DNA of 12,406 bases from a virus. Made by a program: the position numbers and the translations under genes. The stretch is taken from the UHGV virus genome UHGV-0130052. One strand, given 5' to 3'. The notes below the pieces were generated by a model. That model ran no database searches. It saw nothing but the letters and a program-made list of their open reading frames with translations, and was not told where the DNA came from. Below are positions 1 through 12,340 of the stretch, piece after piece (positions within the stretch are counted from its first letter, which is position 1; every line of letters begins with the position of its first letter).

Positions 1-54
1 AGCAGCGCATTCGTAATGCGAAGGTCGTAGGTTCGACTCCTATTATCGGCACCA
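1..54 (+). tRNA. thrW: tRNA-Thr (anticodon CGU), 3' portion only; the 5' end lies upstream of the window
   Basis: Anticodon loop CATTCGTAATGCG (CGT at 13-15), T-arm GGTTCGACTCC, acceptor 3' strand TATCGGC, discriminator A and encoded CCA ending at 54. Matches the enterobacterial thrW sequence as I recall it; the symbol assumes an enterobacterial-type host. Confidence 0.85.
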
Positions 55-55
55 T
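36..55. repeat. attL core: tRNA 3'-end copy of the 20-bp direct repeat ACTCCTATTATCGGCACCAT
   Basis: Identical 20-mer recurs at 12321-12340 in the same orientation; overlaps the tRNA 3' end as expected for tRNA-targeted site-specific integration. Confidence 0.8.
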
Positions 56-660
56 CAAGAAAATCAATAACTTAGCTTAACTTCTCTAAGAAATTGTATC
101 TTCTGTTATCACTTACAAACGCCTATACGTTGTTATGGGCTTTTGGTAGTTTAACACGTATGGGCGAGTAGTTCCCAGGCTCAACCTCGTAACAAGTTCC
201 TTTGAAGCTGGAAGACGTGCCACCGTCTCTAAACCTTCTACCAAAACTCTTAGCAAGATGTTCCACACCTGGCGCGGTGTCCAATGATGCTACACGTCGT
301 GAGACGTTGCAGAGGATAAACAGGCTAAATGATGGGAAGAGTTTTAAGTGCAATAGTGGATTAAAGCCCACCTCTTCAAAACCTAACTTGATCGGGAAAG
401 AATCAAGCTCTAGCACGGTTTCGTCCACCGGAGTACAACGGGTGCCTGATAAGAGAAGAACTGCTAAGACTTCATAGCTTTTGTGAAAAAGCCCTTTTTA
501 GTGGATACGCCTACGGCGCTTATTTTTTGGTATAACCATCAAAGGCGCTTTATGGCTCCTATTGTCTTGAAAATGTATCTTTACTTGTATTGTGTTTTAT
601 GCGTAGTCTCCCTGTGTAGTATGTAACTTGTTAATTTTCATATGAATACAGAGGCACACG

Positions 661-813
661 ATGAAAAACATTGCAGCTATCAAACGTAATAACCGCAAGA
701 TTCACGCTCGTAAGTTCCTGTCTACGCCAGAAGGAAAAGCCTGGCTAGAGCGTAAACAGCGAGAGAACGAAGAAAGAAAACTCCTTAGTGAGTTGAAATG
801 GCTTAAGGATTGA
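661..813 (+). CDS. Small basic hypothetical protein (50 aa), MKNIAAIKRNNRKIHARKFLSTPEGKAWLERKQRENEERKLLSELKWLKD
   Basis: ORF below the track cutoff, translated by hand; GAGG upstream of ATG; followed by a hairpin at 824-865. No family recognised. Confidence 0.3.
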   Translation: MKNIAAIKRNNRKIHARKFLSTPEGKAWLERKQRENEERKLLSELKWLKD

Positions 814-823
814 ATCACCAGTA

Positions 824-865
824 GGCGCATAACACATCCAGCGATCAAAGATGTGTTTATGCGCC
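824..865 (+). terminator. Possible intrinsic terminator (imperfect 15-bp stem, 11-nt loop) after the 661-813 ORF
   Basis: GGCGCATAACACATC ... GATGTGTTTATGCGCC inverted repeat with one bulge; the T-rich run only follows after ~20 nt, so weak. Confidence 0.3.
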
Positions 866-958
866 TGATAGTGAAATTATTAAAGTTTTTTAGTTAATGT
901 AGCCATTGCATGAACGATGATCGCTAGTGAATCGATTTTATCTCGAGGGGTAAAATAG

Positions 959-1054
959 ATGAGGTATATGATGGTAACAATTACAGCTAAAGTAATTGTG
1001 GTTCTGCAGGTTTTTAAAATGGATGAGATAAAGCGCATAGATACCCCCTATTGA
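959..1054 (+). CDS. Small hydrophobic peptide (31 aa), MRYMMVTITAKVIVVLQVFKMDEIKRIDTPY
   Basis: GAGGGG Shine-Dalgarno 9 nt upstream of ATG; hydrophobic core; hand-translated, not in ORF track. Confidence 0.2.
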   Translation: MRYMMVTITAKVIVVLQVFKMDEIKRIDTPY

Positions 1055-1356
1055 TTTAACAATAGCAAAGTATCATTTATTTTTTATTGCGCGCAACATG
1101 CAAATTTTCACATATAATAGTTTACTATTCACTTTGTATGGTGTCAACAAGATGATGTGTTGTTTTGTTTGATTTGTTCAAGATAATGTTTCATTTTCTC
1201 ATCTATATAACTTGTGTTTTAGATAATTTCACTAATTGTAAAAGTTACGTATTGCTTAATAGCTACCTTTTTATCTGAAATCGGCGCAGACGTGATCAAT
1301 GTTTAACGCGAAGATCAGCGGCGTCAGGTCCACGCAGCGACAATTCTCAAATATCA

Positions 1357-1375
1357 AGGAGGCATTACGCCTCCT
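1357..1375 (-). terminator. Hairpin over the stop codon of the recombinase gene (possible terminator)
   Basis: AGGAGGC-ATTAC-GCCTCCT 7-bp GC-rich stem; downstream on the minus strand is UUGAUAUUUGA, only moderately U-rich. Confidence 0.25.
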
Positions 1376-1904
1376 CTTCTTCCTTCTTGATACGTTGCAC
1401 CGTTGAAGGAGCAACATTAAAGCTCTCGGCGGTTTTACGCACTGACAGGCCATCAGAAAGGGCTTTCTTTATACCTTCTCGATCCACTGCTTTTCCATTA
1501 CCACGTTTTGTAGGATTGACGGCTTGCGCTTCTCGTTTACGTTCTAACATCAGTTCACGTTCACACGTTGCAACTGCCGACAACATCGTAAGCATCATCT
1601 TTCCCATCGCGCTTGTAATGTCTGCAATGATTCCTTCTTTGTGAAATCGAACAATTACACCTCGATTATTAAGTTGTTCAACTAAAGCAAGGATGTCTAA
1701 GGTGTTACGTCCTAAACGGTCGAGAGAGTGCACGTGTAAGGTGTCGCCTTCTCTCAGATAGGCTAAACACGCTTGTAAGCCTGGGCGGTTAGTGTCTTTA
1801 CCAGACAGCTTATCTTCAAAGACTTTATCGAGAGTTACTCCTGCAAGCTGGCGATCAGTGTTCTGATCTACAGTGCTCACACGCTTATAACCGATATTGC
1901 TCAT
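1365..1904 (-). CDS. Serine recombinase, resolvase/invertase family (179 aa) with C-terminal HTH
   Basis: N-terminal GYKRVSTVDQNTDRQ catalytic-serine motif; SLDRLGRN and SAMGKMMLTMLSAVATCERELMLER segments resemble Tn3 TnpR/Hin as I recall them; C-terminal SVRKTAESFNVAPSTVQRI HTH; AAGAGGA Shine-Dalgarno before the start. Confidence 0.9.
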   Translation of the reverse strand: MSNIGYKRVSTVDQNTDRQLAGVTLDKVFEDKLSGKDTNRPGLQACLAYLREGDTLHVHSLDRLGRNTLDILALVEQLNNRGVIVRFHKEGIIADITSAMGKMMLTMLSAVATCERELMLERKREAQAVNPTKRGNGKAVDREGIKKALSDGLSVRKTAESFNVAPSTVQRIKKEEEEA

Positions 1905-1943
1905 AAAATCCTCTTAATGTGTCGATTTGGCACTACTTCAATG

Positions 1944-1979
1944 CAAATGAGTATACCGTATTCATTTGGTCTGTTTCAA
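1944..1979 (-). promoter_or_regulatory. Putative recombinase promoter (-35 TTGAAA, 18-bp spacer, -10 TATACT on minus strand) overlapping an imperfect dyad CAAATGAGTATAC-C-GTATTCATTTG (res site I candidate)
   Basis: Hexamers read directly on the minus strand at 1974-1979 and 1950-1955; the dyad spans 1944-1968 and overlaps the -10. Classic resolvase autoregulatory layout. Confidence 0.45.
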
Positions 1980-2026
1980 GCCTTATGGGTACGGAATATT
2001 ACACGATTTAGCTGTATTCATTTGGT
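1958..2026. repeat. Direct repeat GTATTCATTTGGT x2 (1958-1970, 2014-2026), candidate accessory resolvase subsites
   Basis: Exact 13-mer repeated 56 bp apart immediately upstream of the recombinase gene. Confidence 0.5.
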
Positions 2027-2047
2027 ATGCCTAATGGATACACAGGG

Positions 2048-2477
2048 GGATAGATTAAATGATGTTCTGTTTATACAGGTTTATTTGTTAGATCAACAAT
2101 TTGGCATTTCTAAACAGATGTTTGAACGTTGCCAAATGTCTTGACAACACAAGAAAAGGGCTTGCTATGCCACGCATTACACGAAATAAGGCTGTAAAAA
2201 CAAAATAAATTTTAAAATTTGCACAAACGAGAAAACTCGTTCAGAAACAAGCAGAACAATTTTTAGCCAACAATTTATGATGGTGCTTTGTAAGCCGCAT
2301 TACACAAGGCTTTGCGAAAGTGATGTAAAAGTGAAGAAAGTGAGAATTGCACTTTTAGCTACTTTTTCATTGAATTTTTAGTATGGAATTACACAGGGAA
2401 TAGAGAGCATTATTCTATGATTTACACAGGGAATATAGGGGGATTATGGCACACACATAGAAAGACATTACACAGAG
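2048..2477. repeat. Iteron-like family: TTACACAGGGAATA (2389-2402 and 2422-2435, exact), ATACACAGGGGGATAG (2048-2063), CGCATTACAC (2173-2182, 2296-2305), CATTACACAG (2466-2475)
   Basis: Exact and near-exact direct repeats seen in sequence; two perfect 14-mers are 33 bp apart. A degenerate copy ATTACATAAGGGAAT sits at ~3432-3446. Confidence 0.6.
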
Positions 2478-2520
2478 TGCTATGTGACAAATGGATGTAA
2501 CGGTAGGTCATAGTGAGCTA

Positions 2521-2609
2521 CCCCCACAGAATTCTGTTAATCTTAACTTTTAAAGAGATTTGTACCCTAACAAAATTCTGTTACCCCACCCCCACAGAAT
2601 TCTGTTACC
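2521..2609. repeat. Three ~20-bp iterons each containing a 12-bp palindrome: CCCCCACAGAATTCTGTTA (2521-2540, 2589-2608) and variant CCCTAACAAAATTCTGTTACCCC (2565-2587)
   Basis: ACAGAATTCTGT is a perfect palindrome; copies are direct repeats flanked by C-runs and are immediately followed by an AT-rich tract. Confidence 0.7.
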
Positions 2610-2670
2610 TATTAGATCATTTATTAAATTACTTATTAAATTATAATATTATATATTTATTTATATGATC
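2610..2670. other. AT-rich tract (almost pure A/T), candidate DNA-unwinding element of an origin
   Basis: TATTAGATCATTTATTAAATTACTTATTAAATTATAATATTATATATTTATTTATATGATC directly downstream of the palindromic iterons. Confidence 0.4.
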
Positions 2671-2840
2671 TTTTGCCTTCCGGCGTTAGCTTCACTCTCT
2701 GGCAAGCAGCCTTACTCCGCTACCTTTCGGGCTACGTTGGCTGGCCCGTTCCGCTCACACCGAAAGCAAAGCGTTACTTTCTTCGTGTAACTATCGTTGG
2801 CGGTAACGCCCACGAAGAAATACTATTGCGCTGTGCGCAG
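2671..2840. other. GC-rich, highly self-complementary island in an otherwise AT-rich non-coding region (candidate structured RNA or cis-acting DNA site; strand unknown)
   Basis: Perfect 10-bp stem TTTCTTCGTG (2778-2787) / CACGAAGAAA (2811-2820) enclosing a GGCG-GTAA-CGCC hairpin (2799-2810); CTTTCGG (2724-2730) / CCGAAAG (2760-2766); TGCGC-TGT-GCGCA hairpin (~2827-2839). The overlapping ORF 2673-2951 looks non-coding. Confidence 0.3.
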
Positions 2841-3476
2841 AAGAGTAATCACCTAACCAATCATACTGATTGCTTATGTGTTAACTCTATCTCTCTACTC
2901 TTAATTACCCTCCTACATTTAATAACTCTGTTATTCTCTGTAGTTGTGTAATTGTTTTCGGTGGAAAAGCCAGAGGCGACACCGAAAGAGAATTCTGATC
3001 TTATTAATCTTATCTATCTTAGTTAATCTTCTTACTTATCTTACTTACTTTATCTACTTTATTATTAATAATAGCTTTATAAGCTCTCTGCGTAGCTCTC
3101 TGACGCAAGAAACAGCATTCAGGAAGGGAATCACCTTAGAAAAGTGTTCTTTGCGTCATAATGTGTTTTATGAAGGATTCAGAGGTGTTTCATAACAGGA
3201 ATGTATAGAGGATACTTTAATTAATTAAAAATAAGGGGTCTAAATGCTTCTCTAACAGCATTAAGCAGGGTAGGGAATGGAAACGCATTGCCTACACATA
3301 TAAGCTCACTACAGGGCTTTACAGGGCGTTTTATAAAGTGACTCTCTATCTTATATCTACCATTACCTTTTCATATACCTAACAAATACAAAATAAGCCC
3401 CTTAAATAAGCCTCTGGCGAGCTAAACAGCCATTACATAAGGGAATGTATTGCTTTTATCAAAATCTCGTTATAAC

Positions 3477-3496
3477 GCGTTTTAGAGCGTTTTAGA
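3477..3496. repeat. Tandem direct repeat GCGTTTTAGA x2, candidate operator ~85 bp upstream of the 3581 promoter
   Basis: Exact 10-bp tandem duplication seen in sequence. Confidence 0.5.
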
Positions 3497-3580
3497 CAAT
3501 AATGAAGAATGGCACTACACAGAAGAGCACGAGTTGCTCGTAAGTGCATGAAAAAGATCGATTTTTTTCGGAAGGGGTAT

Positions 3581-3609
3581 TGACAAACGTCTCTTTCTGT
3601 GCAATAATA
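3581..3609 (+). promoter_or_regulatory. Sigma70-like promoter: -35 TTGACA (3581-3586), 17-bp spacer, -10 AATAAT (3604-3609), for the 3733-5986 operon
   Basis: Consensus -35 with optimal spacer; near-consensus -10; ~120 nt upstream of a gene with a strong AGGAGG ribosome-binding site. Confidence 0.5.
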
Positions 3610-3732
3610 GGAATTAGAGGGGACAGGAATAGATTCTTATCCTCTAAATAATTAAACCAATGCACCGCACTTTGAAGCCCAAGGCTTGCAAGGTGTTTTT
3701 TCTTTTAACCAAATAGAATAGGAGGTTAATTA

Positions 3733-3921
3733 GTGAAGTATTTCACTTCTCAAGATGTAGTTGAAGCCTGGAAACGTGGTGAGATCAACCGCTTTAAAGT
3801 AAGGATGTATAGAAACACCGCTCGCCGTTGTGGTTATCCAGAGCGTGAAAAATGTTTTGACGATGCACTGAAAATTATTGATGAACTGCGTAAAGCTGAG
3901 AAAGAAGCTGAGAAAGAATAA
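3733..3921 (+). CDS. Small hypothetical protein (62 aa), GTG start, charged C-terminal tail
   Basis: AGGAGG 7 nt upstream of GTG; first gene of the rightward operon. No family recognised. Confidence 0.55.
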   Translation: MKYFTSQDVVEAWKRGEINRFKVRMYRNTARRCGYPEREKCFDDALKIIDELRKAEKEAEKE

Positions 3922-3943
3922 TAGACAAGAGAAGGAGAAAACT

Positions 3944-4111
3944 ATGAGCGAAACTAAGAAACCAATTCCGCGCACTTACCTACACGTTGACCCTGAAATC
4001 TTCAAGGTTTTATTTGCTGAAGCCAAGAAAAGGCAAATTATGGTCAGTGATTTGATGTTAGAAATCATTACTGAAGCAGCAGAGAACATCAAACAAAAAA
4101 AGGGTAAGTGA
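3944..4111 (+). CDS. Putative ribbon-helix-helix (CopG/Arc-like) DNA-binding protein (55 aa)
   Basis: AGGAG 6 nt upstream of ATG 3944 (internal start of track ORF 3878-4111); N-terminal basic strand RTYLHV followed by two predicted helices, typical RHH layout. Judged by eye. Confidence 0.5.
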   Translation: MSETKKPIPRTYLHVDPEIFKVLFAEAKKRQIMVSDLMLEIITEAAENIKQKKGK

Positions 4112-4162
4112 TCCTCATTCACTTTAGTAGCGCATTAAGCGTGATTTATAAGGAGATTTTTA

Positions 4163-4816
4163 ATGATTAATGAAGAACAATTTGTAAAAGTTCCTATGTG
4201 GATTCTAAAAATAAGCCAAGTAAACGGGCATAAATTTACAGATAGTGCTAAAAACCTTTACTGCTATCTGAAAGGGTTTGATCGTGCATTTCCCTCTTAC
4301 GCTAAGATAGGCGATGTTTTTGGCATAACACCAAGAGCAGCAGAGGAAAGGGTTAAGAAATTGCTCGAAATGGGATTAATTATAAAAGATGCACGACCAG
4401 GAAGTTCTAATGTCTATCAAGTGGTAGATATTCCACAAGAAGAAGCTAGACAAGAAGCCAAGACACAACAAGAAGCTACTGTTAAAGCTGTTCCTGATCA
4501 GCTTCCGCCTACGGAAGATAATAAACAGCCTTCTTTTGATGTTCTTGATGATTGGGATACGCCTTTACCGTGGGAGACGGAAGAAACACCTGTTTCATCA
4601 AGTGAAAAGGTAGCTAATGATAATGAGGAGGATGTGTTAGAAAATTTTGCCTCTCTTATTATCAAGCAGAAGAATACCAGAACAGCAGGGGCATCATTTA
4701 TAGAATTTGCAAATTCACTAGCTTATAGACACGGGCTAAAACGACCAAATGGTATTGAGGCATATTTTGCTAAGAAACATCCCAAAGTATACGAAGACTT
4801 TGATATTCCATTTTAA
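4163..4816 (+). CDS. Putative replication initiator/replisome-organiser-like protein: N-terminal winged-HTH, acidic C-terminal region (217 aa)
   Basis: AAGGAG Shine-Dalgarno; N-terminal segment (YAKIGDVFGITPRAAEERVKKLLEMGLI) has the look of phage/plasmid initiator wHTH domains; acidic DDWDTPLPWETEETP stretch. Function is inferred, not demonstrated. Confidence 0.45.
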   Translation: MINEEQFVKVPMWILKISQVNGHKFTDSAKNLYCYLKGFDRAFPSYAKIGDVFGITPRAAEERVKKLLEMGLIIKDARPGSSNVYQVVDIPQEEARQEAKTQQEATVKAVPDQLPPTEDNKQPSFDVLDDWDTPLPWETEETPVSSSEKVANDNEEDVLENFASLIIKQKNTRTAGASFIEFANSLAYRHGLKRPNGIEAYFAKKHPKVYEDFDIPF

Positions 4817-4827
4817 TAAGGAGGGTT

Positions 4828-5103
4828 ATGATTCAATATTTAGTAAAAAATCAAGTAGACAGAATTCAGTGTAATGACACAGGAAAACGCATCTACGAAA
4901 CACTTGCTTACCTCTATAAAGGAAAGCCAACACCGCTAAAATATAGCGATGTGTTACACCGAGCAGGGTGCTCTGAAGATGGTTTAAAATTCTGGCTGAA
5001 ACAGCTATCAAACTTCGGTGTTATTGAGATTAAAGAATTATCTTTCTCTACATTCAATCTCAAAAGACTAGATAAAGAAATAGAATTCTATTCCACTCTC
5101 TAA
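4828..5103 (+). CDS. Hypothetical protein, possible small winged-HTH protein (91 aa)
   Basis: Strong AAGGAGGG ribosome-binding site; tightly packed behind the preceding gene; no family recognised. Confidence 0.55.
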   Translation: MIQYLVKNQVDRIQCNDTGKRIYETLAYLYKGKPTPLKYSDVLHRAGCSEDGLKFWLKQLSNFGVIEIKELSFSTFNLKRLDKEIEFYSTL

Positions 5104-5235
5104 AATCTCTCTATGTAATTAAAATATAAAAGGAAAACATTATTATGATAGTAGCTATGTATTGGTTATTGTTCTTTATCACGTTAGAAACATATTTCGG
5201 GGTGTTTTCCTTTAAAAGAAAAGGAAAAGTAAATA

Positions 5236-5646
5236 ATGGCAAAAAGAAAAAACAATGTTGTTAAGAAAATCGGGGATTCAGCTTCTCTTCTAAGTAAACC
5301 TAAATCTATTCTAAGACGCAAAGACTTTAAAGAGCTAGTTACGCTCACCAAGCATAATAGCGCCCCTGGCGAATGGAAAACAGAGATCATAGAACATTCT
5401 CCCTCTGTGCCTTGTGGAGATGAATTTAACGCATTACAAGAAATCTTATCTTCAACACCTGGCGTATTCTGGAAACCTAGAAAAAGAAAAGAGTATATTG
5501 TTGATAGCTCTGATTTACGCAAATACCAGATTTTAGGATTTGAAGACTATAACCACTACGTTGGTTATCTCGCCACCAATGGCCTAAATAATTTAGTTCC
5601 TGAATTCCAAATTTTAGATAATGCTGATCACTATGGAGACTTTTAA
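5236..5646 (+). CDS. Hypothetical protein with basic N-terminus (136 aa)
   Basis: Same strand and operon; AAGGA upstream; the antisense ORF 5184-5522 is rejected in its favour. Confidence 0.5.
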   Translation: MAKRKNNVVKKIGDSASLLSKPKSILRRKDFKELVTLTKHNSAPGEWKTEIIEHSPSVPCGDEFNALQEILSSTPGVFWKPRKRKEYIVDSSDLRKYQILGFEDYNHYVGYLATNGLNNLVPEFQILDNADHYGDF

Positions 5647-5647
5647 T

Positions 5648-5986
5648 ATGAACAAAAACACGTATGATACAATTTACTCACTAATTAATTATTATGAGGA
5701 TGATTACCTCCTGCCTTTAAACCGCGCTGAACTTGATGCATATAAAGAAAACACCCCAGCGGCACTAAATGAGGCGTTTAAACACTGGGATTTAGCTGTG
5801 AATGCCTTTGAGCACCTCTGTAAGCGTGTAGAGATGCTCTGTAAGCGTGAAAACGCATATCTGACAGCCGATCAGATATGGGAGCTATCAAACTGGATAG
5901 AAGATATTGAATCTGATGTTCGCTATGTAGGAGACGGCCTTGTTGAACTAGCTCAACGCTTAGGCGCTACTATCACAGAAGAATAA
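5648..5986 (+). CDS. Hypothetical protein (112 aa from ATG 5648; track ORF begins at 5621)
   Basis: ATG 5648 lies 1 nt after the upstream stop with GGAGAC 7 nt ahead; the 5621 start would overlap the previous gene by 26 nt. Confidence 0.5.
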   Translation: MNKNTYDTIYSLINYYEDDYLLPLNRAELDAYKENTPAALNEAFKHWDLAVNAFEHLCKRVEMLCKRENAYLTADQIWELSNWIEDIESDVRYVGDGLVELAQRLGATITEE

Positions 5987-6015
5987 AAAAAGCAACAAAA
6001 AAGTTGTAAAATATC

Positions 6016-6044
6016 TTGACATTTCATCTATTGTATGTTAATAT
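6016..6044 (+). promoter_or_regulatory. Sigma70-like promoter: -35 TTGACA (6016-6021), 17-bp spacer, -10 TAATAT (6039-6044), upstream of the capsid-containing operon
   Basis: Consensus -35, optimal spacer, near-consensus -10; a second -10-like hexamer (AATTAT/TATATA) follows immediately. Confidence 0.55.
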
Positions 6045-6181
6045 AATTATATAGGGTGATTATTTTTCCTTTATTGGTTCGATATTAAAAATTCTTCTTG
6101 TCGTTAAAGGGGAGTAAAATCTCCGCTCCCCGCTTCTCCTCCTTAAGTAAATACTGTGTCATTATTACCTCTTTTTTCCTT

Positions 6182-6214
6182 TGTTATGCATACATCTTGG
6201 AGTGTGCATAACAT
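6182..6214. promoter_or_regulatory. Inverted repeat TGTTATGCA-N14-TGCATAACA in the operon leader (candidate protein-binding site or RNA hairpin)
   Basis: 9-bp perfect arms seen in sequence. Confidence 0.4.
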
Positions 6215-6227
6215 AGGGTAATTACAA

Positions 6228-6257
6228 AGGCGGCTTTAAATGCTGCCTTTTATTTTG
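6228..6257 (+). terminator. Intrinsic terminator inside the leader, ~60 nt upstream of the first gene of the capsid operon
   Basis: AGGCGGC-TTTAAAT-GCTGCCT stem (7 bp, one G-U) followed by TTTATTTTG. Confidence 0.5.
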
Positions 6258-6264
6258 CCCGTTA

Positions 6265-6282
6265 TACAACTTAAAAGTTGTA
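6265..6282. promoter_or_regulatory. Perfect 18-bp palindrome TACAACTTAAAAGTTGTA between the leader terminator and the first operon gene
   Basis: Exact dyad symmetry seen in sequence, ~37 bp upstream of ATG 6319. Confidence 0.4.
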
Positions 6283-6318
6283 TTTCTTACTTTAAACAAG
6301 GTAACAAGGTTTATATAA

Positions 6319-6531
6319 ATGTTGTTTTTAAACGATAAAGAGCAAATCATCAAGTATAAAGATGAAATGCTGAAAATTAATCCACAAATTACCGAAATGG
6401 TAGCTAAATACGCTGGGTGTTCTGTAGAGGAAGTAGAAAGATGTGTTGAAAAATATTTTTCTCCTTCTTCTCCGTCTACACCTTCCCTTAATGAACTAAT
6501 CAAATTAAAAGCTAAGGAGATTACTAAATGA
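6319..6531 (+). CDS. Small hypothetical protein (70 aa)
   Basis: Stop overlaps the next start (ATGA), suggesting translational coupling; weak ribosome-binding site. Confidence 0.4.
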   Translation: MLFLNDKEQIIKYKDEMLKINPQITEMVAKYAGCSVEEVERCVEKYFSPSSPSTPSLNELIKLKAKEITK

Positions 6532-6890
6532 TTATTGATTTAGACACTCTTTTTCCAAGTCGAAAGACGTTTACAGATCTGGTGGCTTATTGTACTGATC
6601 CGTTTGCCTCTGTAGAAAACAAGGTTTTTGCTTCTCTTCCTGCTGATGTTGAATGCGGAGACTTGATCACCAGCACTGGCGCTAAATATGAATCAGGAGA
6701 TGATATCTATGTTGTTATGAGTGAATTTGTAACGGCTGGGGAAAACAAGCCTGTAGATGTGCTACGTAGCAATGCTGGCCTTGTGTGCATTAAAGCTGAT
6801 GCGCTGAATGCTGTAAGTGAAGCAGCAAAAACAGCATTAATTAAAAAAGGCTTCCAGCTTGAAGGCTTTAATACGGTTTTCACTTCTTAA
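6528..6890 (+). CDS. Hypothetical head-module protein (120 aa), positionally analogous to a decoration or scaffold protein
   Basis: AAGGAG Shine-Dalgarno; ATGA overlap with upstream gene; sits directly upstream of the capsid-like gene. I see no convincing similarity to lambda gpD, so the role is positional inference only. Confidence 0.5.
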   Translation: MIIDLDTLFPSRKTFTDLVAYCTDPFASVENKVFASLPADVECGDLITSTGAKYESGDDIYVVMSEFVTAGENKPVDVLRSNAGLVCIKADALNAVSEAAKTALIKKGFQLEGFNTVFTS

Positions 6891-6908
6891 TAAAAGGAAT
6901 AATAATAA

Positions 6909-7937
6909 ATGATTCTAGGTAATGATTACGTTGATTTGATCCCTCTGTTCCAGACACACAGCACGCGTAACTTCCTGCTCTCTACCCTTGATTTTACGGA
7001 TTCTGTAGGGGTTACATCTCATAAAGTAGCTGTTTCACAGCTTGTCGAAAGCAACGAATCTCTGTTCAACAAAGAAACCTCTCGTTTCTCTTCTGAACAC
7101 AACGTTACTAAGCGAGAACAAGGTAAAGAATGGCTGATTGAAATCCCTTACTTCCTACGTGAAGATGTGATCCGTCCTTCTGATGTTCAAGGCAAGCGTA
7201 AACCTGGCACTGATTTCCAGGAAACACTCACTGATATTTATGCTGAGTATGTTGCTAAACATCACGTAGCGTATCAGCGTACAAAAGAGAGCGTGTTGGC
7301 GGCTTCTTTGTTCTCTGGCAAAACTTACACGCCTAAAACTGATGATGTTCTTATCGAGTGGGGCAAGCTGTTTAACGTATCAGCTATGAAAGCCACTGTG
7401 AACGCTTCCAGCACTGACACCACGAAGATTTTTAAAGAATTTGATCAGATTGCTACTGACATTATCGAAAAAGCACAAAGCCAGGCGGCTGCTGTAGAGC
7501 GTATTGTTGTTTTCTGTAAGCCGGAAGCCTTCTCTGCAATTCGATTCTCTGCGGGTATGGCAAACGCATTCCAGTATGTAAGCCCACTGGAAGAAGGGAA
7601 CGTTGTGTATCAGCGTCGTGACCTGCTACCAGGAGTGACAGCGTTCACTATTCCAGGAACTAACATTGATGTTGTTAAACTGGTAGATCCGCTACACCTG
7701 GCACATATGACCGCAGACGCTGTAGCTGTGCCTAAATTCTCTAAGGGTAGCGGAATTTATACCAATATCTTCGGGGCTGCTTCCAGCACCTTTGAACTGA
7801 TTAATGCCGCTCCTGCTGAGGTGTATAGCTATAGCTATGAATCTTCTCGTGGTGATGCTGTTAACGTTGTTACAGAGAATAGCCAGATGGTTGTAAACCA
7901 CGGTGTAGGCTTCTCCGTTCAAATCACTGTTAAATAA
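6909..7937 (+). CDS. Putative major capsid protein, lambda gpE-like family (342 aa)
   Basis: Length close to lambda gpE (341 aa). Local similarities to gpE as I recall it: RIVVFCKPEAFSAIRFS vs IIVFDPKGWALFRSF, LFSGKTYTPKTDD vs VLKGKYTMTGE, C-terminal FSVQI vs VSVQLA, N-terminal DLIPLFQ vs FDPLFLR. Followed by a strong terminator. Not verified by search. Confidence 0.55.
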   Translation: MILGNDYVDLIPLFQTHSTRNFLLSTLDFTDSVGVTSHKVAVSQLVESNESLFNKETSRFSSEHNVTKREQGKEWLIEIPYFLREDVIRPSDVQGKRKPGTDFQETLTDIYAEYVAKHHVAYQRTKESVLAASLFSGKTYTPKTDDVLIEWGKLFNVSAMKATVNASSTDTTKIFKEFDQIATDIIEKAQSQAAAVERIVVFCKPEAFSAIRFSAGMANAFQYVSPLEEGNVVYQRRDLLPGVTAFTIPGTNIDVVKLVDPLHLAHMTADAVAVPKFSKGSGIYTNIFGAASSTFELINAAPAEVYSYSYESSRGDAVNVVTENSQMVVNHGVGFSVQITVK

Positions 7938-7955
7938 TATTTTAACGTGTAATAG

Positions 7956-7990
7956 AGGCGTGGCGTGAATAACACGCTTCGCCTTTTTTT
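7956..7990 (+). terminator. Strong intrinsic terminator after the capsid-like gene
   Basis: AGGCG/CGCCT outer and GCGTG/CACGC inner stem (loop AATAA) followed by seven Ts, then ATTTATTTTT. Confidence 0.75.
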
Positions 7991-8023
7991 ATTTATTTTT
8001 AAATTTTGAGAGGTGATTAAAAT

Positions 8024-8224
8024 ATGGAAGTGATTCTGAAATCAAAAAACGGTGTACACGTACATTTAGATGCTAATGATTCTAGAGGCTTGTTAAATCT
8101 GAAATATCTATGTTCTCTCTTAGATGTTCCATATGAAGGAGTAAAAGCCCGTATGTTCAGACTAAACGAGAGTATTGATCAGGCTCTACACCATTTCTTA
8201 AGCAAAGAAGGTGGTAAAAAATGA
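8024..8224 (+). CDS. Small hypothetical protein (66 aa)
   Basis: GAGGTGA upstream of ATG; same operon and strand. Confidence 0.45.
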   Translation: MEVILKSKNGVHVHLDANDSRGLLNLKYLCSLLDVPYEGVKARMFRLNESIDQALHHFLSKEGGKK

Positions 8225-8242
8225 TTAATAAGGGGATTTTAA

Positions 8243-10084
8243 ATGTTAGAAATTAACACTTCTAAAATTAAGAACACAGTAACATTTAGTGTAGATAAAG
8301 ACAGCTTGAAAAAAGCGAAAGACTCTATTACAGGCTTAAAGGAATTCGCAGAAAATATCAAGCCAGCTAAATTGAGATTTGATAATGTCACTAAAGGCTA
8401 TAAGAAAGCACAAAGTGAAGTAGACAAGATTACTCAACAGAAAGCTAAAACAGAAAAACAGAATCAAAGAGCACAAGCTGCCGCAGCAAGAGCACAGGCA
8501 AGGCAACAGGCACAAATAGCAGCACGTAAAGAGAAAGCAGAATTAAAACTTCTCGATGTGTCAAGCTCTATCAGTGCAATGCACCGCCTCTCTGTAGCGG
8601 AACAATACAAAGCTATTGCACAGGCTAGAGAGATAGCAAAACAATATGAGCAAGGGGCTATCTCGCTTGCACGTATGAATAGCCAGATGAAACGCCTACA
8701 ACAACAACAACGTAAGATTAATGGCAACAGAAAAACTCAATTAGCCCCCGTTAAGGGAGGATCAGGGAATTCCGCCACTATGGGCGCTCTGTTATTTGGA
8801 GGCGCTACGGCTGCTGCTGGCGTGATGGCTGTTAGCAAAGCGGCGGAGTTTGTTAGTAGCAGTTTCGCTAACGCAGAGACCCAAGGGGAGCTAATCCAAC
8901 GTGCCAAGCTGGGCGGTGTAGACGTTAACCAGATGTATAATATTACAGAATGGGCCTATAGACACGGGATCGATAGCCTCCAGGGAGATCAAGGGGCTAG
9001 GAAATACCTGGATCAGATGAAAGATGTTAGGGAACGTGCCGCAAAATCCTACAGTGAAGCTGAATTGGTGAAAGACAAGAAAACCGGAAAATCTGAATGG
9101 AAAGGCGGTGATAACGCTATTAATGAACTTCTAAACATCGGTGTTATTAACAAAAGCGACCTTAAAAAATTTGCTGATAATCCAGCCGGATTAATTTCTA
9201 AGGCTGTTAATGGAATGATGAAAAAAGGGTTTTCAGACTCCCAAATTGGACAACGTTTAGAAGACCTGGGCGATGATTTGATGCTTACATCAAAATATTG
9301 GCAACGTTCCGTTAAAGATGTACAAGAAAGTATTAATCAGCAAAAAGCCTCTGGAAAATGGCTAACAGAAACACAGCAAGAATCTATTGTTAAATTCAGA
9401 GAACTAAACAGACAGCTTTCACAGCTTTCTGATGCAAGACAAGTAGCATTTGTAGACGGCTTTATGAAATCTCTCGATCCAAAAGTAACGGAAGAGTTTA
9501 TGAAAAACCTTTCTAATCTCACTCCGTATTTTACGAAGCTGGGTGAAGCCGCAGGAAGTCTTTTTGACGCCATTATGAAGATTGTAAACTGGTTTAATCG
9601 TAATGATGATAAGACAGATGCTATTCAGAAAAATATGGGTGATGCACCGCCACTATCTAACGATGGAATGAAACAGAATCTTTCTAACCTCGTTCCTGAT
9701 AAATATAAAGGCGCTGGCACTGCAACAACTACACCTGATAATAGTCATTCCCTCTTTAACACAATTAAGGGATTGCTTTTCGATGATAAGTCTTCTGTGT
9801 CAGATGTAAAAATGTCAGTCAGCGAAGCACCGATAACCAATCTCAAACAGGGTGCTTTAAATAATCTTGCAATGACAACTCCGGCTTATAATTTATCTCC
9901 TGTGTTTAATCTGAATCCTACATTTGAAGTGGTAACAGAGGTTCCGCTTACTATTAATTCTGACACATCCAGATTAAGCGATTATGTGGATTTTACAGCG
10001 AGAGCAAGTCGGGATAGCTTCTTGAAATCATTAACATTAACCAGCTTGTCAGGACAATCCAACGGCGGGGAATTCCCGCCATAA
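8243..10084 (+). CDS. Large hypothetical protein (613 aa): N-terminal coiled-coil-like region rich in Q/A/K/R, Gly/Ala-rich hydrophobic segment, large C-terminal domain; tape-measure-like or scaffold-like
   Basis: AAGGGGA 6 nt upstream of ATG; residues ~60-170 are helical and low complexity (QRAQAAAARAQARQQAQIAARKEKAELKLL); hydrophobic TMGALLFGGATAAAGVMAV; no catalytic motif recognised. Confidence 0.6.
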   Translation: MLEINTSKIKNTVTFSVDKDSLKKAKDSITGLKEFAENIKPAKLRFDNVTKGYKKAQSEVDKITQQKAKTEKQNQRAQAAAARAQARQQAQIAARKEKAELKLLDVSSSISAMHRLSVAEQYKAIAQAREIAKQYEQGAISLARMNSQMKRLQQQQRKINGNRKTQLAPVKGGSGNSATMGALLFGGATAAAGVMAVSKAAEFVSSSFANAETQGELIQRAKLGGVDVNQMYNITEWAYRHGIDSLQGDQGARKYLDQMKDVRERAAKSYSEAELVKDKKTGKSEWKGGDNAINELLNIGVINKSDLKKFADNPAGLISKAVNGMMKKGFSDSQIGQRLEDLGDDLMLTSKYWQRSVKDVQESINQQKASGKWLTETQQESIVKFRELNRQLSQLSDARQVAFVDGFMKSLDPKVTEEFMKNLSNLTPYFTKLGEAAGSLFDAIMKIVNWFNRNDDKTDAIQKNMGDAPPLSNDGMKQNLSNLVPDKYKGAGTATTTPDNSHSLFNTIKGLLFDDKSSVSDVKMSVSEAPITNLKQGALNNLAMTTPAYNLSPVFNLNPTFEVVTEVPLTINSDTSRLSDYVDFTARASRDSFLKSLTLTSLSGQSNGGEFPP

Positions 10085-10105
10085 CATTACAAGGAAATTA
10101 TTATT

Positions 10106-10819
10106 ATGGCGACCGCCGGGATTTTAACCATACGATCAGCAAACTCCCCAGAACAACACGTTCAGGCTGTTTACAAAGCAGAACAAGATATAAACTCTAC
10201 AAAAAACACAAATAACTCTGCCTCTACTGTGAAAGGAGAGAATGGATTTGCTATTGTTACCAGTGGCTTGGCATCTTCTGGTAATGACGTTTATGAAAAT
10301 TATATGGCACTGGCCTTTGACAGTGTTGACGATGTGAACGTGAGACGTTCGGCAGATGTCACAAGCTACCCCGTAGAGAATGGTGCTACTGTGTCTGATC
10401 ACGTTCAAATTAAAAACAATAAGTTTTCTCTTAAAGGGCGTATCTCTGAAACACCGATTAAAAGCGATCCTGGCTTGTTAAAGAGTGCAGGGGTGAACGG
10501 GAACAGAAGATCATTAGCTATCGACTACCTGAATCAGATTATGGACAGTAGACAGCCTTTTCTTCTTGTTACAGAAAATAAAACTTTTGAGAACGTTGTT
10601 TTAACAGGCATCGAATACACAGAAGAGGCAAGCGAATCCCTGGTATTTGATCTTAGCTTTGAACAAATCAGATTAGTTTCTTATGGCACTGTAAACACTG
10701 TAGCTATCAAAACACAGCCATCTAAGAACATAGGGGCTAATATGAAAAAACGTGTTAACACTGAAAAAGCAAGTAGTGAAGGTGAAGACACTATTACTCC
10801 TGCCTTTAAACAGGAATAG
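10106..10819 (+). CDS. Hypothetical protein (237 aa), composition suggests beta-rich; possible virion or accessory protein
   Basis: AAGGA upstream of ATG; last gene of the operon, convergent with the integrase; no motif recognised. Confidence 0.55.
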   Translation: MATAGILTIRSANSPEQHVQAVYKAEQDINSTKNTNNSASTVKGENGFAIVTSGLASSGNDVYENYMALAFDSVDDVNVRRSADVTSYPVENGATVSDHVQIKNNKFSLKGRISETPIKSDPGLLKSAGVNGNRRSLAIDYLNQIMDSRQPFLLVTENKTFENVVLTGIEYTEEASESLVFDLSFEQIRLVSYGTVNTVAIKTQPSKNIGANMKKRVNTEKASSEGEDTITPAFKQE

Positions 10820-10860
10820 CCGTAAATGCCTCTAAAACGCTCTGTAACGATGTAATTATA

Positions 10861-10893
10861 AAAGAGGCTACCAATCTATGTTGAAGCCTCTTT
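10861..10893. terminator. Candidate bidirectional terminator between the convergent 10106-10819 gene and the integrase
   Basis: Perfect 9-bp stem AAAGAGGCT / AGCCTCTTT with A-run on one side and T-run on the other; the 15-nt loop is long, which lowers confidence. Confidence 0.45.
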
Positions 10894-10900
10894 ATTGCGT

Positions 10901-12265
10901 CTATGGTGTTGTTTTACGCCTTAAATTTGATTTTTTATTGATTGATAAGCCTTTCTCTATTTCAGGGTAGCGTAGAAGCTCAATATATTTTTTAAGCTCT
11001 ACTGGAGAAGCTGCATTCTTGCTATATGTGCGGAATGTCTCTGTATTGCCGCGTGTATGGCCCAGGAGAAGGGCGATCCTGTCTTCTGGAATTTGATTTC
11101 GATCAAGAAGCTGTGCTACTCCGTGTCTCAGAGAATGAAACACCTTCCTTTCTGTTCCCTTTTCCCCTAAAGCCTTTCGTTTAGCTCTTGTAAATCTCTG
11201 CGTGTGCCACGTAGAGCGTTTACCATCTACACGCTCTGTAATGCTGGCGTGATAGAACAAAAAGCCATTATGAGGCTTTTCACGCAGCGACAACACCAAC
11301 GGAGTGATAAGGCTGTGTACAGGCACAACACGTGCCGCAGCTTTCGTTTTTCCCTGTGTGATTTCAAAACACAGCACACCTTCGATCTCTTTCACATCGT
11401 CTATTGTGAGACTTGCTATCTCATTGATCCGCATACCTGTATATAAACCGATAAGACACAAAGCCATCATTTCTTTGTTTTCTGCTGAATTACCGGAAAA
11501 TACTTGCAACACCTGCAATAGCTCTTTGTTAGAAAATGCCTCGTAGCTCTCTCTACTTTGTGCCACATCAAGCCTATGCCCTCGCCAGGGGGAGAGCGCC
11601 CTTTCTGGCGCATCGTGGTAACGTGATGAAGCTAACTCCCATAGCTGGGCCATTGGGCTGATATAATTTGCAATTGATTGTTGTGAAAGGGTTTTTTGCA
11701 TGTGTTCAATCCAGCCTGTAACAGTGGTGCGGCTTACATCTTGCAATGCAATATCAGGCTTTTTACGGTAGGAGAGAAACATCTCTACCGCTTTTCTTGC
11801 CTTAGCTAAAGTGGCTGGCTTCTTCTTCGTGCTGTTAATTGTCAGGTAGATTTCAAGAATTTTAAGCAATGACGGACACGAAGACGCTGTATCTTGCATT
11901 CTGGTAGCTGTTTTGGCGTATTTAGCCTTACTGCGTAACAGCTCCAGCGTGTTCTCTATTGTGCTGTTTACAGGGGCGACACTCTCCCGTAGACAATGGT
12001 ATTCATCTGCAATCTGATCACGCTTTCTACGTGCAACACGAAGATTACTTGTGTGCAGACTCCTGACAAACGTCCTTTTTCCTTCAAAAAAGGGCTGCAT
12101 ATACACAGGCAACGTGATCCTCAAATAGTAGTTACCGTAAGAATCACAGATTATGTATTGATTGGGCTTGTATCTCATAAACTCCCCGGCTAAAGTGTCG
12201 GAGCGTTTGTAATGTGAAAATTGATTGTGACGCATAGAAAATGATGATTTTTCTATAAGATTCAA
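10901..12265 (-). CDS. int: Tyrosine site-specific integrase (454 aa)
   Basis: C-terminal catalytic-domain motifs HSLRHGVAQLL and LLGHTRGNTETFRTY (His/Arg/Tyr signature); start lies ~55 bp from the right-hand att repeat and the gene reads away from it. The ribosome-binding site is weak, so the exact start is uncertain. Confidence 0.9.
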   Translation of the reverse strand: MNLIEKSSFSMRHNQFSHYKRSDTLAGEFMRYKPNQYIICDSYGNYYLRITLPVYMQPFFEGKRTFVRSLHTSNLRVARRKRDQIADEYHCLRESVAPVNSTIENTLELLRSKAKYAKTATRMQDTASSCPSLLKILEIYLTINSTKKKPATLAKARKAVEMFLSYRKKPDIALQDVSRTTVTGWIEHMQKTLSQQSIANYISPMAQLWELASSRYHDAPERALSPWRGHRLDVAQSRESYEAFSNKELLQVLQVFSGNSAENKEMMALCLIGLYTGMRINEIASLTIDDVKEIEGVLCFEITQGKTKAAARVVPVHSLITPLVLSLREKPHNGFLFYHASITERVDGKRSTWHTQRFTRAKRKALGEKGTERKVFHSLRHGVAQLLDRNQIPEDRIALLLGHTRGNTETFRTYSKNAASPVELKKYIELLRYPEIEKGLSINKKSNLRRKTTP

Positions 12266-12320
12266 TCAATTAGTAATGGTCGTAGGTGATGGCATTAACA
12301 CGAGATTAATCGAGTGTTTT

Positions 12321-12340
12321 ACTCCTATTATCGGCACCAT
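12321..12340. repeat. attR core: second copy of the 20-bp direct repeat (duplicated tRNA 3' end)
   Basis: ACTCCTATTATCGGCACCAT identical to 36-55; not preceded by the rest of a tRNA, so it is a partial tRNA copy marking the element boundary. Confidence 0.8.

Follow-up and report, generated by a model that had tools for sequence, protein, structure and literature searches.

The window (the whole stretch of DNA analysed, 12,406 nucleotides) contains a 12.3 kb island that is probably an integrative phage satellite from a hitherto undescribed family, parasitizing phi92-like virulent myoviruses; we put the probability of this reading at about 0.6. A helper-dependent element with its own capsid protein, as opposed to a decayed prophage, is the best-supported reading because the insertion is precise, the empty site is abundant, the genes are under purifying selection, the architecture is common to several genera and no full-length relative was found. 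The initial annotation had proposed either a satellite or a mini-prophage. The helper-dependent half of that proposal, with its own capsid protein, is retained on the grounds of insertion, selection and shared architecture, while a very small autonomous prophage is not supported, since portal, terminase, sheath, tube, baseplate and lysis genes are absent. The features of the window are as follows.

1–54, plus strand: 3' part of the tRNA-Thr(CGU) gene thrW (Rfam RF00005 at 1–51, 34.3 bits, 5'-cut)
36–55, no strand: attL core, 20-bp direct repeat (repeat search; copy comparison)
56–660, no strand: left arm with no convincing gene, 98–99% identical between copies, above the rest of the island
661–813, plus strand: hypothetical protein, 50 aa, annotated in RefSeq copies; family searches gave no match
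1365–1904, minus strand: small serine recombinase of the resolvase/invertase type, 179 aa (PF00239, E 7.5e-34; phrog_125 DNA invertase, E 1.3e-54)
2389–2672, no strand: origin-like region, with TTACACAGGGAATA twice and ACCCCCACAGAATTCTGTTA three times, then an AT-rich stretch
3580–3608, plus strand: P1, near-consensus sigma-70 promoter (TTGACA-17-AATAAT with TG; 11/12 matches, top score in the window)
3733–3921, plus strand: 62-aa protein, first early gene, conserved in the family
3941–4111, plus strand: 56-aa protein, 100% identical in amino acids to muut_153 of phage muut
4163–4816, plus strand: winged-helix replication-initiator-like protein, 217 aa (phrog_270, E 2.6e-10; phrog_391, E 6.7e-8)
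4828–5103, plus strand: 91-aa protein (pN/pS 0.13)
5236–5646, plus strand: 136-aa conserved protein with a Lys/Arg-rich disordered N-terminus (387 relatives, mainly in Klebsiella)
5648–5986, plus strand: 112-aa acidic protein, final early gene, helical as judged by eye only
6016–6044, plus strand: P2, strong sigma-70 promoter (TTGACA-17-TAATAT with TG; conserved in seven family loci)
6050–6258, plus strand: structured untranslated leader directly 5' of the structural operon (fold z-score −4.66)
6319–6531, plus strand: 70-aa protein, opening gene of the structural operon (pN/pS 0.06)
6528–6890, plus strand: capsid cement/decoration protein, 120 aa, beta-tulip fold
6909–7937, plus strand: major capsid protein, HK97 fold, gpE family, 342 aa (PF03864, E 9.4e-14)
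8024–8224, plus strand: 66-aa protein, present in all family members (pN/pS 0.02)
8243–10084, plus strand: tail tape measure protein, 613 aa (phrog_16051, E 7.7e-52; PDB 21vq_V, E 1.8e-38)
10106–10819, plus strand: Dit-like tail-tube initiator, 237 aa (PF21821, E 2.5e-29; PDB 21vq_N, E 7e-81)
10901–12178, minus strand: tyrosine integrase, 425 aa as annotated (PF00589, E 1.5e-17; RefSeq annotation)
12321–12340, no strand: attR core, 20-bp direct repeat (repeat search; copy comparison)

The ends of the island are an exact 20-bp direct repeat, ACTCCTATTATCGGCACCAT; by our own arithmetic, a 12.4 kb sequence would have about 7 × 10−5 such pairs by chance alone. Its left copy forms the 3' end of a tRNA-Thr gene with anticodon CGT, and the annotated tRNA-Thr of E. 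coli FHI_NMBU_11 stops at the base equal to window position 54. ARAGORN called no tRNA in the window because the window begins inside the gene and its 5' half lies outside. The initial description of a tRNA-Thr element bounded by perfect repeats is therefore borne out, as is its pairing of an integrase with a resolvase, both recovered by profile matches. Of 5426 complete E. coli genomes, 2613 have the empty site, recognized at 100% identity over 121 nt as a fusion of the tRNA end with the right flank; this indicates a precise insertion and not a conserved chromosomal locus. At least 80% of the island is present in 229 of the same 5426. The island-side end sequence is constant in all copies despite differing neighbouring DNA. 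The unit is a true, discrete insertion at thrW, made by the tyrosine integrase. This enzyme is encoded at the right end, facing outward and with no adjacent regulator; its N-terminal domain is DUF6538 (PF20172, E 4.8e-9) and its reading frame runs on to 12265, beyond the annotated start. Weighing against the satellite reading, searches of metagenome, viral-contig and genome collections did not turn up a 40-nt attP junction, and the IMG/VR matches, judged by the form of their identifiers, are all proviruses from isolate genomes and not virome contigs. Other cryptic elements sit in tandem at the same tRNA hot spot.

The structural operon encodes the cement protein, the major capsid protein, a small HTH-like protein, the tape measure and the tube initiator. 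The capsid gene had been recognized from the outset; the cement gene beside it had been missed, and the statement that the island has no tail genes is overturned by the tape measure and tube initiator. Ahead of the operon, the leader following P2 ends in the top-scoring intrinsic terminator of the window (stem 6226–6250 plus a T tract), and direct reading of the sequences shows this promoter–leader–terminator layout in all seven family loci. The tape measure is a homologue of phi92 gp134, with both termini conserved and the middle diverged, and the tube initiator is a homologue of gp135 (62% identity; tblastn and PDB match). In phi92 the C-terminus of the tape measure (residues 631–656) is located within the baseplate (PMC13450770). 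The capsid protein is more distant, matching PDB entry 9zbi (Pakpunavirus P7-1 capsid protein) with E 1e-11 and phi92 gp124 with E 3e-5 and 22% identity across its full length; the nearest phage capsid protein is about 25% identical, and among 1.84 billion representatives the matching clusters number only 80. The cement protein resembles phi92 gp123 in fold only. Four genes of the phi92 structural module (gp123, gp124, gp134 and gp135) have homologues on the island in the same relative order (PMC13450770), whereas about 20 phage genes between and around them are missing, the capsid is strongly diverged and the cement is alike only in fold.

Tape measures from three island types each match the same 134 of 50,697 phage records; the matches listed are Stephanstirmvirinae-type genomes of about 130–153 kb. 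On the basis of the tape measure and tube initiator, phi92-like Stephanstirmvirinae (Justusliebigvirus and Phapecoctavirus) are the probable helper, an assignment made by homology. Patches of island DNA are 99.6%, 95.5%, 86% and 69% identical to phage muut, the first of these at 3932–4170.

This patch covers part of the early operon, in which P1 precedes small regulators, the initiator and three unknown proteins. The N-terminal domain of the initiator-like protein is 40% identical to muut_154, and the full protein matches PF13730 at E 6.6e-4, short of Pfam's own cut-off. The neighbouring 56-aa protein looks by eye like a ribbon-helix-helix protein; Pfam and PDB searches returned no match to that fold. 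Three 20-mer iterons lie at 2520–2607 and further ones at 2389–2435, and relatives carry their own iteron sets at the equivalent position. The iteron origin and initiator-like protein suggested earlier are both identifiable. No helicase, primase or polymerase was found on the island, and the initiator has no primase or helicase domain in Pfam or PHROGs.

The core order of a ∼70-aa protein, cement, capsid, a ∼63-aa protein and tape measure recurs in Klebsiella, Enterobacter, Serratia, Sodalis and a second E. coli type, with the integrase adjoining the end of the core in all of these loci except that of Sodalis. Klebsiella and Enterobacter islands with this core are 12–14 kb long and lie at other tRNA genes; relatives in tRNA-Gly(CCC) and tRNA-Leu(CAA) have their own repeats and span 13.4–14.2 kb. 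The tube initiator is missing from most relatives and is therefore not essential to the family. It is about an even wager that a widespread family of enterobacterial satellites has its founding member in this island; such satellites would make their own shell, replace the inner tail core of large virulent phi92-like myoviruses (the tape measure and sometimes the tube initiator) and steal the rest.

In such a cycle, infection by a phi92-like phage would lead the island to excise and replicate as a circle, perhaps using its helper-like initiator to borrow the replisome of the helper. The leader would no longer stop transcription, the structural genes would be expressed, and the island capsid and cement proteins would form a small shell, a 12–14 kb genome being suited to about T=3–4 compared with T=13 for the helper. 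Portal, scaffold, terminase, neck, tube, sheath, baseplate, fibres and lysis proteins would come from the helper, although use of its portal and scaffold is uncertain given that the two capsid proteins are only 22% identical. The island tape measure and tube initiator, retaining phage-like ends that could dock in the baseplate hub, would enter helper-made tails, tailoring satellite tails, spoiling helper tails or both. The island would be transferred and the helper yield probably lowered.

Retained docking ends and homology to specific helper parts would also suit an assembly-decoy defence island, in which the capsid homologue, tape measure and tube initiator mainly poison phi92-like virion assembly, protecting the bacterial population without packaging of the island itself, which would move by another route. 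We consider this rather unlikely. Between island types the tape measure is only 25–31% identical compared with 55–76% for the capsid proteins, a rapid divergence expected in an arms race, and satellites and prophages that block tail assembly are documented (PMC11364771). Moreover, the island yielded no packaging-specificity factor (TerS or Rpp-like). Neither an excisionase nor a repressor was recognized on it, which, like the missing packaging factor, counts against the satellite reading. TerS had no match among the island ORFs; two small conserved proteins, at 6319–6531 and 8024–8224, are without assignment. The latter shows helix-turn-helix signals, all weak, and is a candidate DNA-binding factor that might act in packaging specificity, excision or regulation. 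However, a decoy needs no matching cement protein, no iteron origin with an initiator and no tightly conserved size of 12–14 kb, and the island matched no known defence-system model. Interference is also compatible with satellite transfer, known satellites doing both.

The satellite reading is further distinguished from decay by the pattern of selection. All island genes are under purifying selection, with pN/pS of 0.02–0.20 for every gene measured in 12–13 diverged E. coli copies, and the genes are intact in all but two copies, in which the tape measure gene carries an insertion. An integrase together with phage structural genes, located at a tRNA hot spot that also has cryptic elements in tandem, could be a remnant of a formerly complete prophage whose remaining genes are intact by chance, but this selection makes such an origin very improbable, as does the repetition of the reduced gene set and order in five genera and at three tRNA sites. 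Neither the 51 homologues nor the phage collection included a larger relative with the capsid gene, and a full-length phage relative did not emerge. The nearest relatives of the tail genes are virulent phages, with no annotated integrase in the records inspected.

Searches of the island ORFs against Pfam, PHROGs and NCBIfam gave no portal, terminase, protease, sheath, tube, baseplate or lysis gene, in agreement with the initial annotation for terminase, portal, prohead protease and lysis, and the ORFs without assignment are all too short for a portal or TerL. A self-sufficient miniature phage, or a helper-free particle maker resembling a gene-transfer agent or encapsulin, would account for the capsid, cement and replication origin but is hardly credible with these genes absent and with a tape measure and tube initiator that would have no role without a tail.

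In its make-up the island has attributes of a phage satellite: it is integrative, has an incomplete virion gene set and carries genes that interface with a specific phage. Comparison with P4-like elements, PICI, cfPICI and PLE had been suggested initially; the gene content of the island fits none of the four SatelliteFinder family definitions, and PLE is set apart by host as well as gene content. The tape measure and tube initiator themselves separate it from all these classes. Like cfPICIs such as EcCIEDL933, it is integrative, of a size near 12–15 kb, enterobacterial and equipped with its own HK97-fold capsid protein, and must obtain other virion parts from a helper. In contrast, cfPICIs lack tail genes but possess all the genes for head formation and packaging, along with a primase-replicase and an alpA-type regulator (PMC10085698), whereas the island has only cement and capsid plus two tail genes. 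Scans of every ORF with Pfam, PHROG and NCBIfam found none of the cfPICI set (portal, prohead protease, head–tail adaptor, connector, TerS, TerL and HNH). The PICI hallmarks are likewise lacking, with no profile match to an alpA/merR/stl-type regulator beside the integrase and only the winged-helix initiator in place of a primase-replicase module. Tail profiles are `forbidden' under the SatelliteFinder cfPICI rule (PMC10085698), which the two tail genes break; satellite finders reject such islands because tail genes are treated as disqualifying, exposing a blind spot in detection rules that exclude elements with tail genes.

SaPIbov5, a cos-type SaPI, is also a satellite without its own portal; its Ccm protein, homologous to the major capsid protein of the helper but diverged from it, takes pentamer positions to give a small T=4 shell (PMC8569155). 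It differs in host phylum and in having no tail genes, and a sequence relation to the island was not detected. The dedicated cement gene beside the island capsid gene suggests a whole shell and not pentons alone, as in Ccm. PLE of Vibrio cholerae, which also acts in defence, is an integrative satellite of a strictly virulent myovirus, ICP1, and its origin-binding initiator depends on the helper replisome, as that of the island may. However, its scaffold TcaP remodels stolen ICP1 coat protein, and it has no capsid or tape measure gene (PMC10002752). PHROG and Pfam scans of the island gave no PLE-like match, and the libraries used revealed no sequence relation. P4-like elements share the ∼11–12 kb size, tRNA-gene integration and enterobacterial hosts, but have sid/psu/delta, alpA, epsilon and the alpha primase and use the P2 capsid protein; none of the P4-like set (psu-delta-sid operon, alpA, epsilon, alpha primase) was found by Pfam or PHROG families. 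Expression in P4 is controlled through transcription termination in the leader, to which the island leader–terminator can be likened. Counting against the satellite reading, we know of no capsid-encoding satellite without its own portal, unless the protein only decorates or caps the helper shell. The literature searched gave no description of such an island family.

Satellites shape phage success, gene transfer and bacterial immunity, and to our knowledge every described satellite family of Enterobacteriaceae relies on temperate helpers. If the satellite reading is correct, strictly lytic phages would for the first time have a satellite in E. coli/Klebsiella, and a tape measure gene would for the first time be known from a satellite. 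Such a family would partly explain strain-level resistance to broad-host-range lytic phi92-like and Phapecoctavirus phages, which several papers consider as candidates for therapy or biocontrol, and through it therapeutic phages would have a way to mobilize chromosomal DNA. A shell without a portal raises the question of how heterologous capsid proteins work with a portal and scaffold of foreign origin. For a tape measure that comes without a tail, the question is what it contributes besides length.

Pfam found no match among the ORFs of the left arm, the RNA folding of which is not unusual (z −0.45); this region may possibly hold arm-type recombinase sites. The nearby serine recombinase gene falls in a patch that is variable among copies, and its position in relatives is occupied by a tyrosine recombinase of 183–205 aa.

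The island is integrated at thrW, the tRNA-Thr(CGU) gene of Escherichia coli. This gene is cut by the window start: an Rfam tRNA model matches positions 1–51 as a 5'-truncated tRNA, and RefSeq annotation of E. coli FHI_NMBU_11 places the 3' end of the tRNA at window position 54, with proA upstream. ARAGORN found no tRNA in the window because the gene is truncated there, and the identity of the tRNA was decided by Rfam and the RefSeq annotation. The direct repeat ACTCCTATTATCGGCACCAT at 36–55 comprises the last 19 tRNA bases and one further base and recurs exactly at 12321–12340, in agreement with the perfect 20-bp repeats that the initial annotation had placed around the unit. A synthetic 121-nt empty-site query, in which the tRNA end is fused to the right flank, matched 2613 of 5426 complete E. 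coli genomes at up to 100% identity, upholding the proposal of an insertion rather than a conserved chromosomal locus; the island itself is present at ≥80% coverage in 229 of these genomes. The island-side ends are the same in all copies, even where tandem elements lie on either flank. The exact repeats, common empty site and constant ends thus define a precise, polymorphic insertion. The left arm (window 56–1000) is 98–99% identical among copies, against 93–96% elsewhere in the island, and the left kilobase on its own occurs in 510 genomes, about twice the number with a near-complete island. A 40-mer spanning the attP junction was absent from three public collections (metagenome, viral-contig and genome), and the identifiers of the IMG/VR matches to the island are interpreted as proviruses in isolate genomes. 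The thrW locus is also a hot spot of tandem insertion (left junctions of island copies L007, L008, L011 and L015; right flanks of L005–L015): a partial tRNA copy from another element precedes the island in several genomes, and at least three different sequences were seen 3' of attR.

Pfam and PHROGs searches corroborated four assignments made initially from the sequence (integrase, resolvase, initiator-like protein and gpE-like capsid protein), and the putative iteron origin is borne out by two iteron blocks and an AT-rich stretch. The principal features are as follows.

1365–1904, minus strand: small serine recombinase (Pfam, PHROGs)
2389–2435 and 2520–2607: iterons, followed by an AT-rich stretch
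4163–4816: winged-helix initiator-like protein (Pfam, PHROGs)
6226–6250: strongest intrinsic terminator of the window, at the leader end, ~70 nt 5' of the first structural gene
6528–6890: cement protein (120 aa)
6909–7937: gpE-family major capsid protein (Pfam, PHROGs)
8243–10084: tape measure protein (phrog_16051, E 8e-52; phi92 gp134 in PDB 21vq, E 2e-38)
10106–10819: tail-tube initiator with Dit-like domain PF21821 (62% identity to phi92 gp135)
10901–12178, minus strand: tyrosine integrase with a DUF6538 N-terminal domain (Pfam, PHROGs)

Four of these genes encode homologues of virion proteins of the virulent myovirus phi92, in the relative order of the phage: cement (gp123), capsid (gp124), tape measure (gp134) and tube initiator (gp135), the last being a hexameric tail-tube initiator of solved structure (PMC13450770). 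Portal, terminase, protease, neck, tube, sheath, baseplate and lysis proteins were not found among the island ORFs by Pfam, PHROGs or NCBIfam, and every unassigned ORF is too short for a portal or large terminase. The reported absence of terminase, portal, protease and lysis genes therefore stands, and that of tail genes does not, given the tape measure and tube initiator. None of the island genes could be assigned to a packaging-specificity protein, excisionase or repressor, the small ORFs had no match in PADLOC or NCBIfam, and BLASTP of the 120-aa and 66-aa (8024–8224) proteins against phi92 gp123 and gp133 detected no similarity.

The tail genes connect the island to phi92-like phages. The tape measures of the thrW E. 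coli type, a second E. coli type and the Klebsiella type each matched 134 phage records, and the matches listed are genomes of ~130–153 kb of the Stephanstirmvirinae type (Justusliebigvirus, Phapecoctavirus and relatives). Between island types, tape measures are 25–31% identical, as opposed to 55–76% for the capsid proteins, and phage motifs are kept at both tape measure ends (N-terminal MLE(I/L)N(T/V)SK...VTF.VDK and C-terminal ...SLTL...SGQS(S/T)TGG); in phi92, C-terminal residues 631–656 form a trimer lodged in the baseplate interior (PMC13450770). Four patches of DNA resemble the related phage muut (Justusliebigvirus): 3932–4170 (99.6% identity), 4450–4516 (95.5%), 8244–8330 (86%) and 10137–10686 (69%). 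The 56-aa protein encoded at 3941–4111 is identical to muut_153, and the winged-helix domain of the initiator is 40% identical to the product of the adjoining phage gene, muut_154. The 4000–4500 patch is limited to some island copies, and the 3932–4516 segment to some phages (muut, inny, Mt1B1_P17 and BI-EHEC); the latter appears to be a regulator/initiator cassette that was exchanged recently. Near-identity confined to some island copies points to recent recombination and thus to a time when island and phage shared a host cell. When family HMMs for eight small ORFs were searched against six-frame ORFs of muut, the only matches were the identical 56-aa protein and a marginal one for the ORF at 5236–5646 (E 0.005); the iterons and the palindrome at 6265–6282 of the island are absent from the muut genome. 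Three records of 146–151 kb labelled Campylobacter phage A150/A145/B15 (MG065639, MG065645 and MG065650) match the island tail genes as E. coli phi92-like phages do, with 89% DNA identity over window 10137–10265, and are probably mislabelled or were grown on a contaminant host.

The island is classed as a new family of phage satellite, and we assign a probability of roughly 0.6 to its being a satellite of phi92-like phages. Infection by such a phage would induce excision and replication of the island, and a small capsid would be assembled from the island shell proteins. Volume scaling from the T=13 head of phi92, which holds 148.6 kb, predicts a shell of about T=3–4 for a genome of 12–14 kb. 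Portal, scaffold, terminase, neck and tail would be supplied by the helper, and the island tape measure and tube initiator would be incorporated into helper tails. The island tape measure has 613 residues compared with 659 in phi92, so, if length scales with residues, such tails would lack about two of the 24 tube rings of phi92. The island tail proteins could serve to tailor tails for the satellite, to sabotage those of the helper, or both. The main rival is a defence island that acts as a non-transducing 'assembly decoy'. This reading leaves the cement protein, the origin and the size constraint unexplained, and we consider it less likely than the satellite.

As a satellite, the island differs from the families already described. 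SatelliteFinder defines PICI by an alpA/merR/stl regulator, a primase-replicase and TerS, cfPICI by eleven components including portal, adaptor, connector, TerS, TerL and HNH, and P4-like elements by psu/delta/sid, alpA, epsilon and alpha (PMC10085698); none of these named components was detected in the island. Tail genes are moreover 'forbidden' for PICI and cfPICI (PMC10085698), so that the island family would be rejected by design. Like the island as proposed here, PLE exploits a virulent myovirus; however, PLE has no gene for a capsid protein or a tape measure (PMC10002752), whereas the island encodes both. A precedent for a satellite that has a capsid-protein homologue and no portal is SaPIbov5, the Ccm of which takes up the penton positions in a T=4 shell (PMC8569155); the island also has a cement protein of its own, which points to a shell that is more complete. 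A helper-dependent element with its own shell protein, as first suggested, is consistent with the capsid and cement genes and the missing portal, terminase and lysis genes, though that description did not foresee tail genes. The literature searched contained no account of an island of this kind.

Homologues of the capsid protein (37–96% identity) occur in Escherichia, Klebsiella, Enterobacter, Citrobacter, Cronobacter, Dryocola, Serratia and Sodalis, and homologues of cement and the ORF at 5236–5646 extend the family to Leclercia, Kluyvera, Pluralibacter and Raoultella. Every locus inspected has a compact core (a protein of ~70 aa, cement, capsid, a protein of ~63 aa and a tape measure of 613–650 aa), followed in all except Sodalis by an outward-facing integrase. 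To the left lie a small recombinase, an iteron-bearing non-coding stretch of ~1.5 kb and the early operon. Relatives are inserted at tRNA-Gly(CCC) (Klebsiella and Enterobacter) or tRNA-Leu(CAA) (Enterobacter), with their own repeats of 27–44 nt and a span of 13.4–14.2 kb. The replication module and the slot 3' of the tape measure are variable, and the tube initiator is restricted to the thrW type and Sodalis. In loci L018, L024, L025 and L016 this slot, between tape measure and integrase, holds unrelated small genes instead (42, 92 and Cys-rich 155 aa), none of which matches phi92 or muut, and in L022 a protein of 111 aa whose hydrophobic N-terminus resembles a signal peptide; the slot looks like a hot spot for accessory genes.

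In a set of 13 diverged E. coli copies, all genes measured have a pN/pS of 0.02–0.20, and all genes are intact except the tape measure (tblastn; 11 of 13 intact, two interrupted). No phage capsid protein more than ~25% identical was found among 50,697 phage genomes, and the capsid protein matches just 80 clusters among 1.84 billion representative proteins. The recurrent core, low pN/pS, intact genes and lack of a close phage capsid argue against a decayed prophage, as the initial annotation had held, and against an ordinary fragment of a known phage. A prophage remnant is poorly supported, as is an autonomous mini-phage, given that no portal, terminase or lysis gene was found. The interrupted genes (L004 and L014) are split by an insertion of ~1.3 kb, and many RefSeq copies carry IS elements inside the island (IS3, IS5, IS30, IS66 and IS481).

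The island has two operons, and the best two plus-strand sigma-70 promoter matches lie at 3580–3608 (P1), before the early genes, and 6016–6044 (P2), before the structural genes. The ~200-nt leader after P2 is far more strongly folded than shuffled sequences (z −4.66) and ends in the terminator at 6226–6250. In all seven of the family loci, read directly, a consensus promoter precedes a long structured leader that closes with a hairpin and T tract; about 290–850 nt separate the promoter from the first gene. The seven leaders share this layout and yielded no alignable RNA element or definable common hairpin; the promoter-leader-terminator units match no Rfam family. By analogy with lambda PR'-tR' and P4 immunity, which are controlled by termination and anti-termination, we infer that the structural operon is gated in this way. 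An early island product or a helper factor are candidates for the anti-terminator; the ORF at 5236–5646, with a Lys/Arg-rich disordered N-terminus, is an example of the former, and a lambda N-like or Q-like antiterminator for this operon is conjecture. The leaders (6050–6258 and equivalents in L016–L027) contain repeated CU-rich (CCUC) runs and, just 3' of the promoter, a −10-like TATAGGGT, which together may be signs of a regulatory RNA or of sigma-dependent pausing. The perfect palindrome TACAACTTAAAAGTTGTA at 6265–6282, between the terminator and the first structural gene, is operator-like in appearance, and its half-site AAGTTGTA occurs at 6001, just 5' of P2. A weak terminator-like hairpin (7962–7978) directly 3' of the capsid gene could lower tape measure expression relative to the capsid protein.

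The non-coding region 1905–3732 showed no similarity to phages and gave only two distant matches in a plasmid collection. Positions 40181–40588 of the 166-kb E. coli plasmid NZ_CP126938.1 are 82% identical to window 3313–3715, the P1 region, and this plasmid may carry a related element or a fragment of one. An unannotated hydrophobic 52-aa ORF at 880–1038 on the minus strand, with a sigma-70-like promoter at 1147–1119, adjoins and partly overlaps a patch that varies between island copies and may encode a type I toxin-like peptide.
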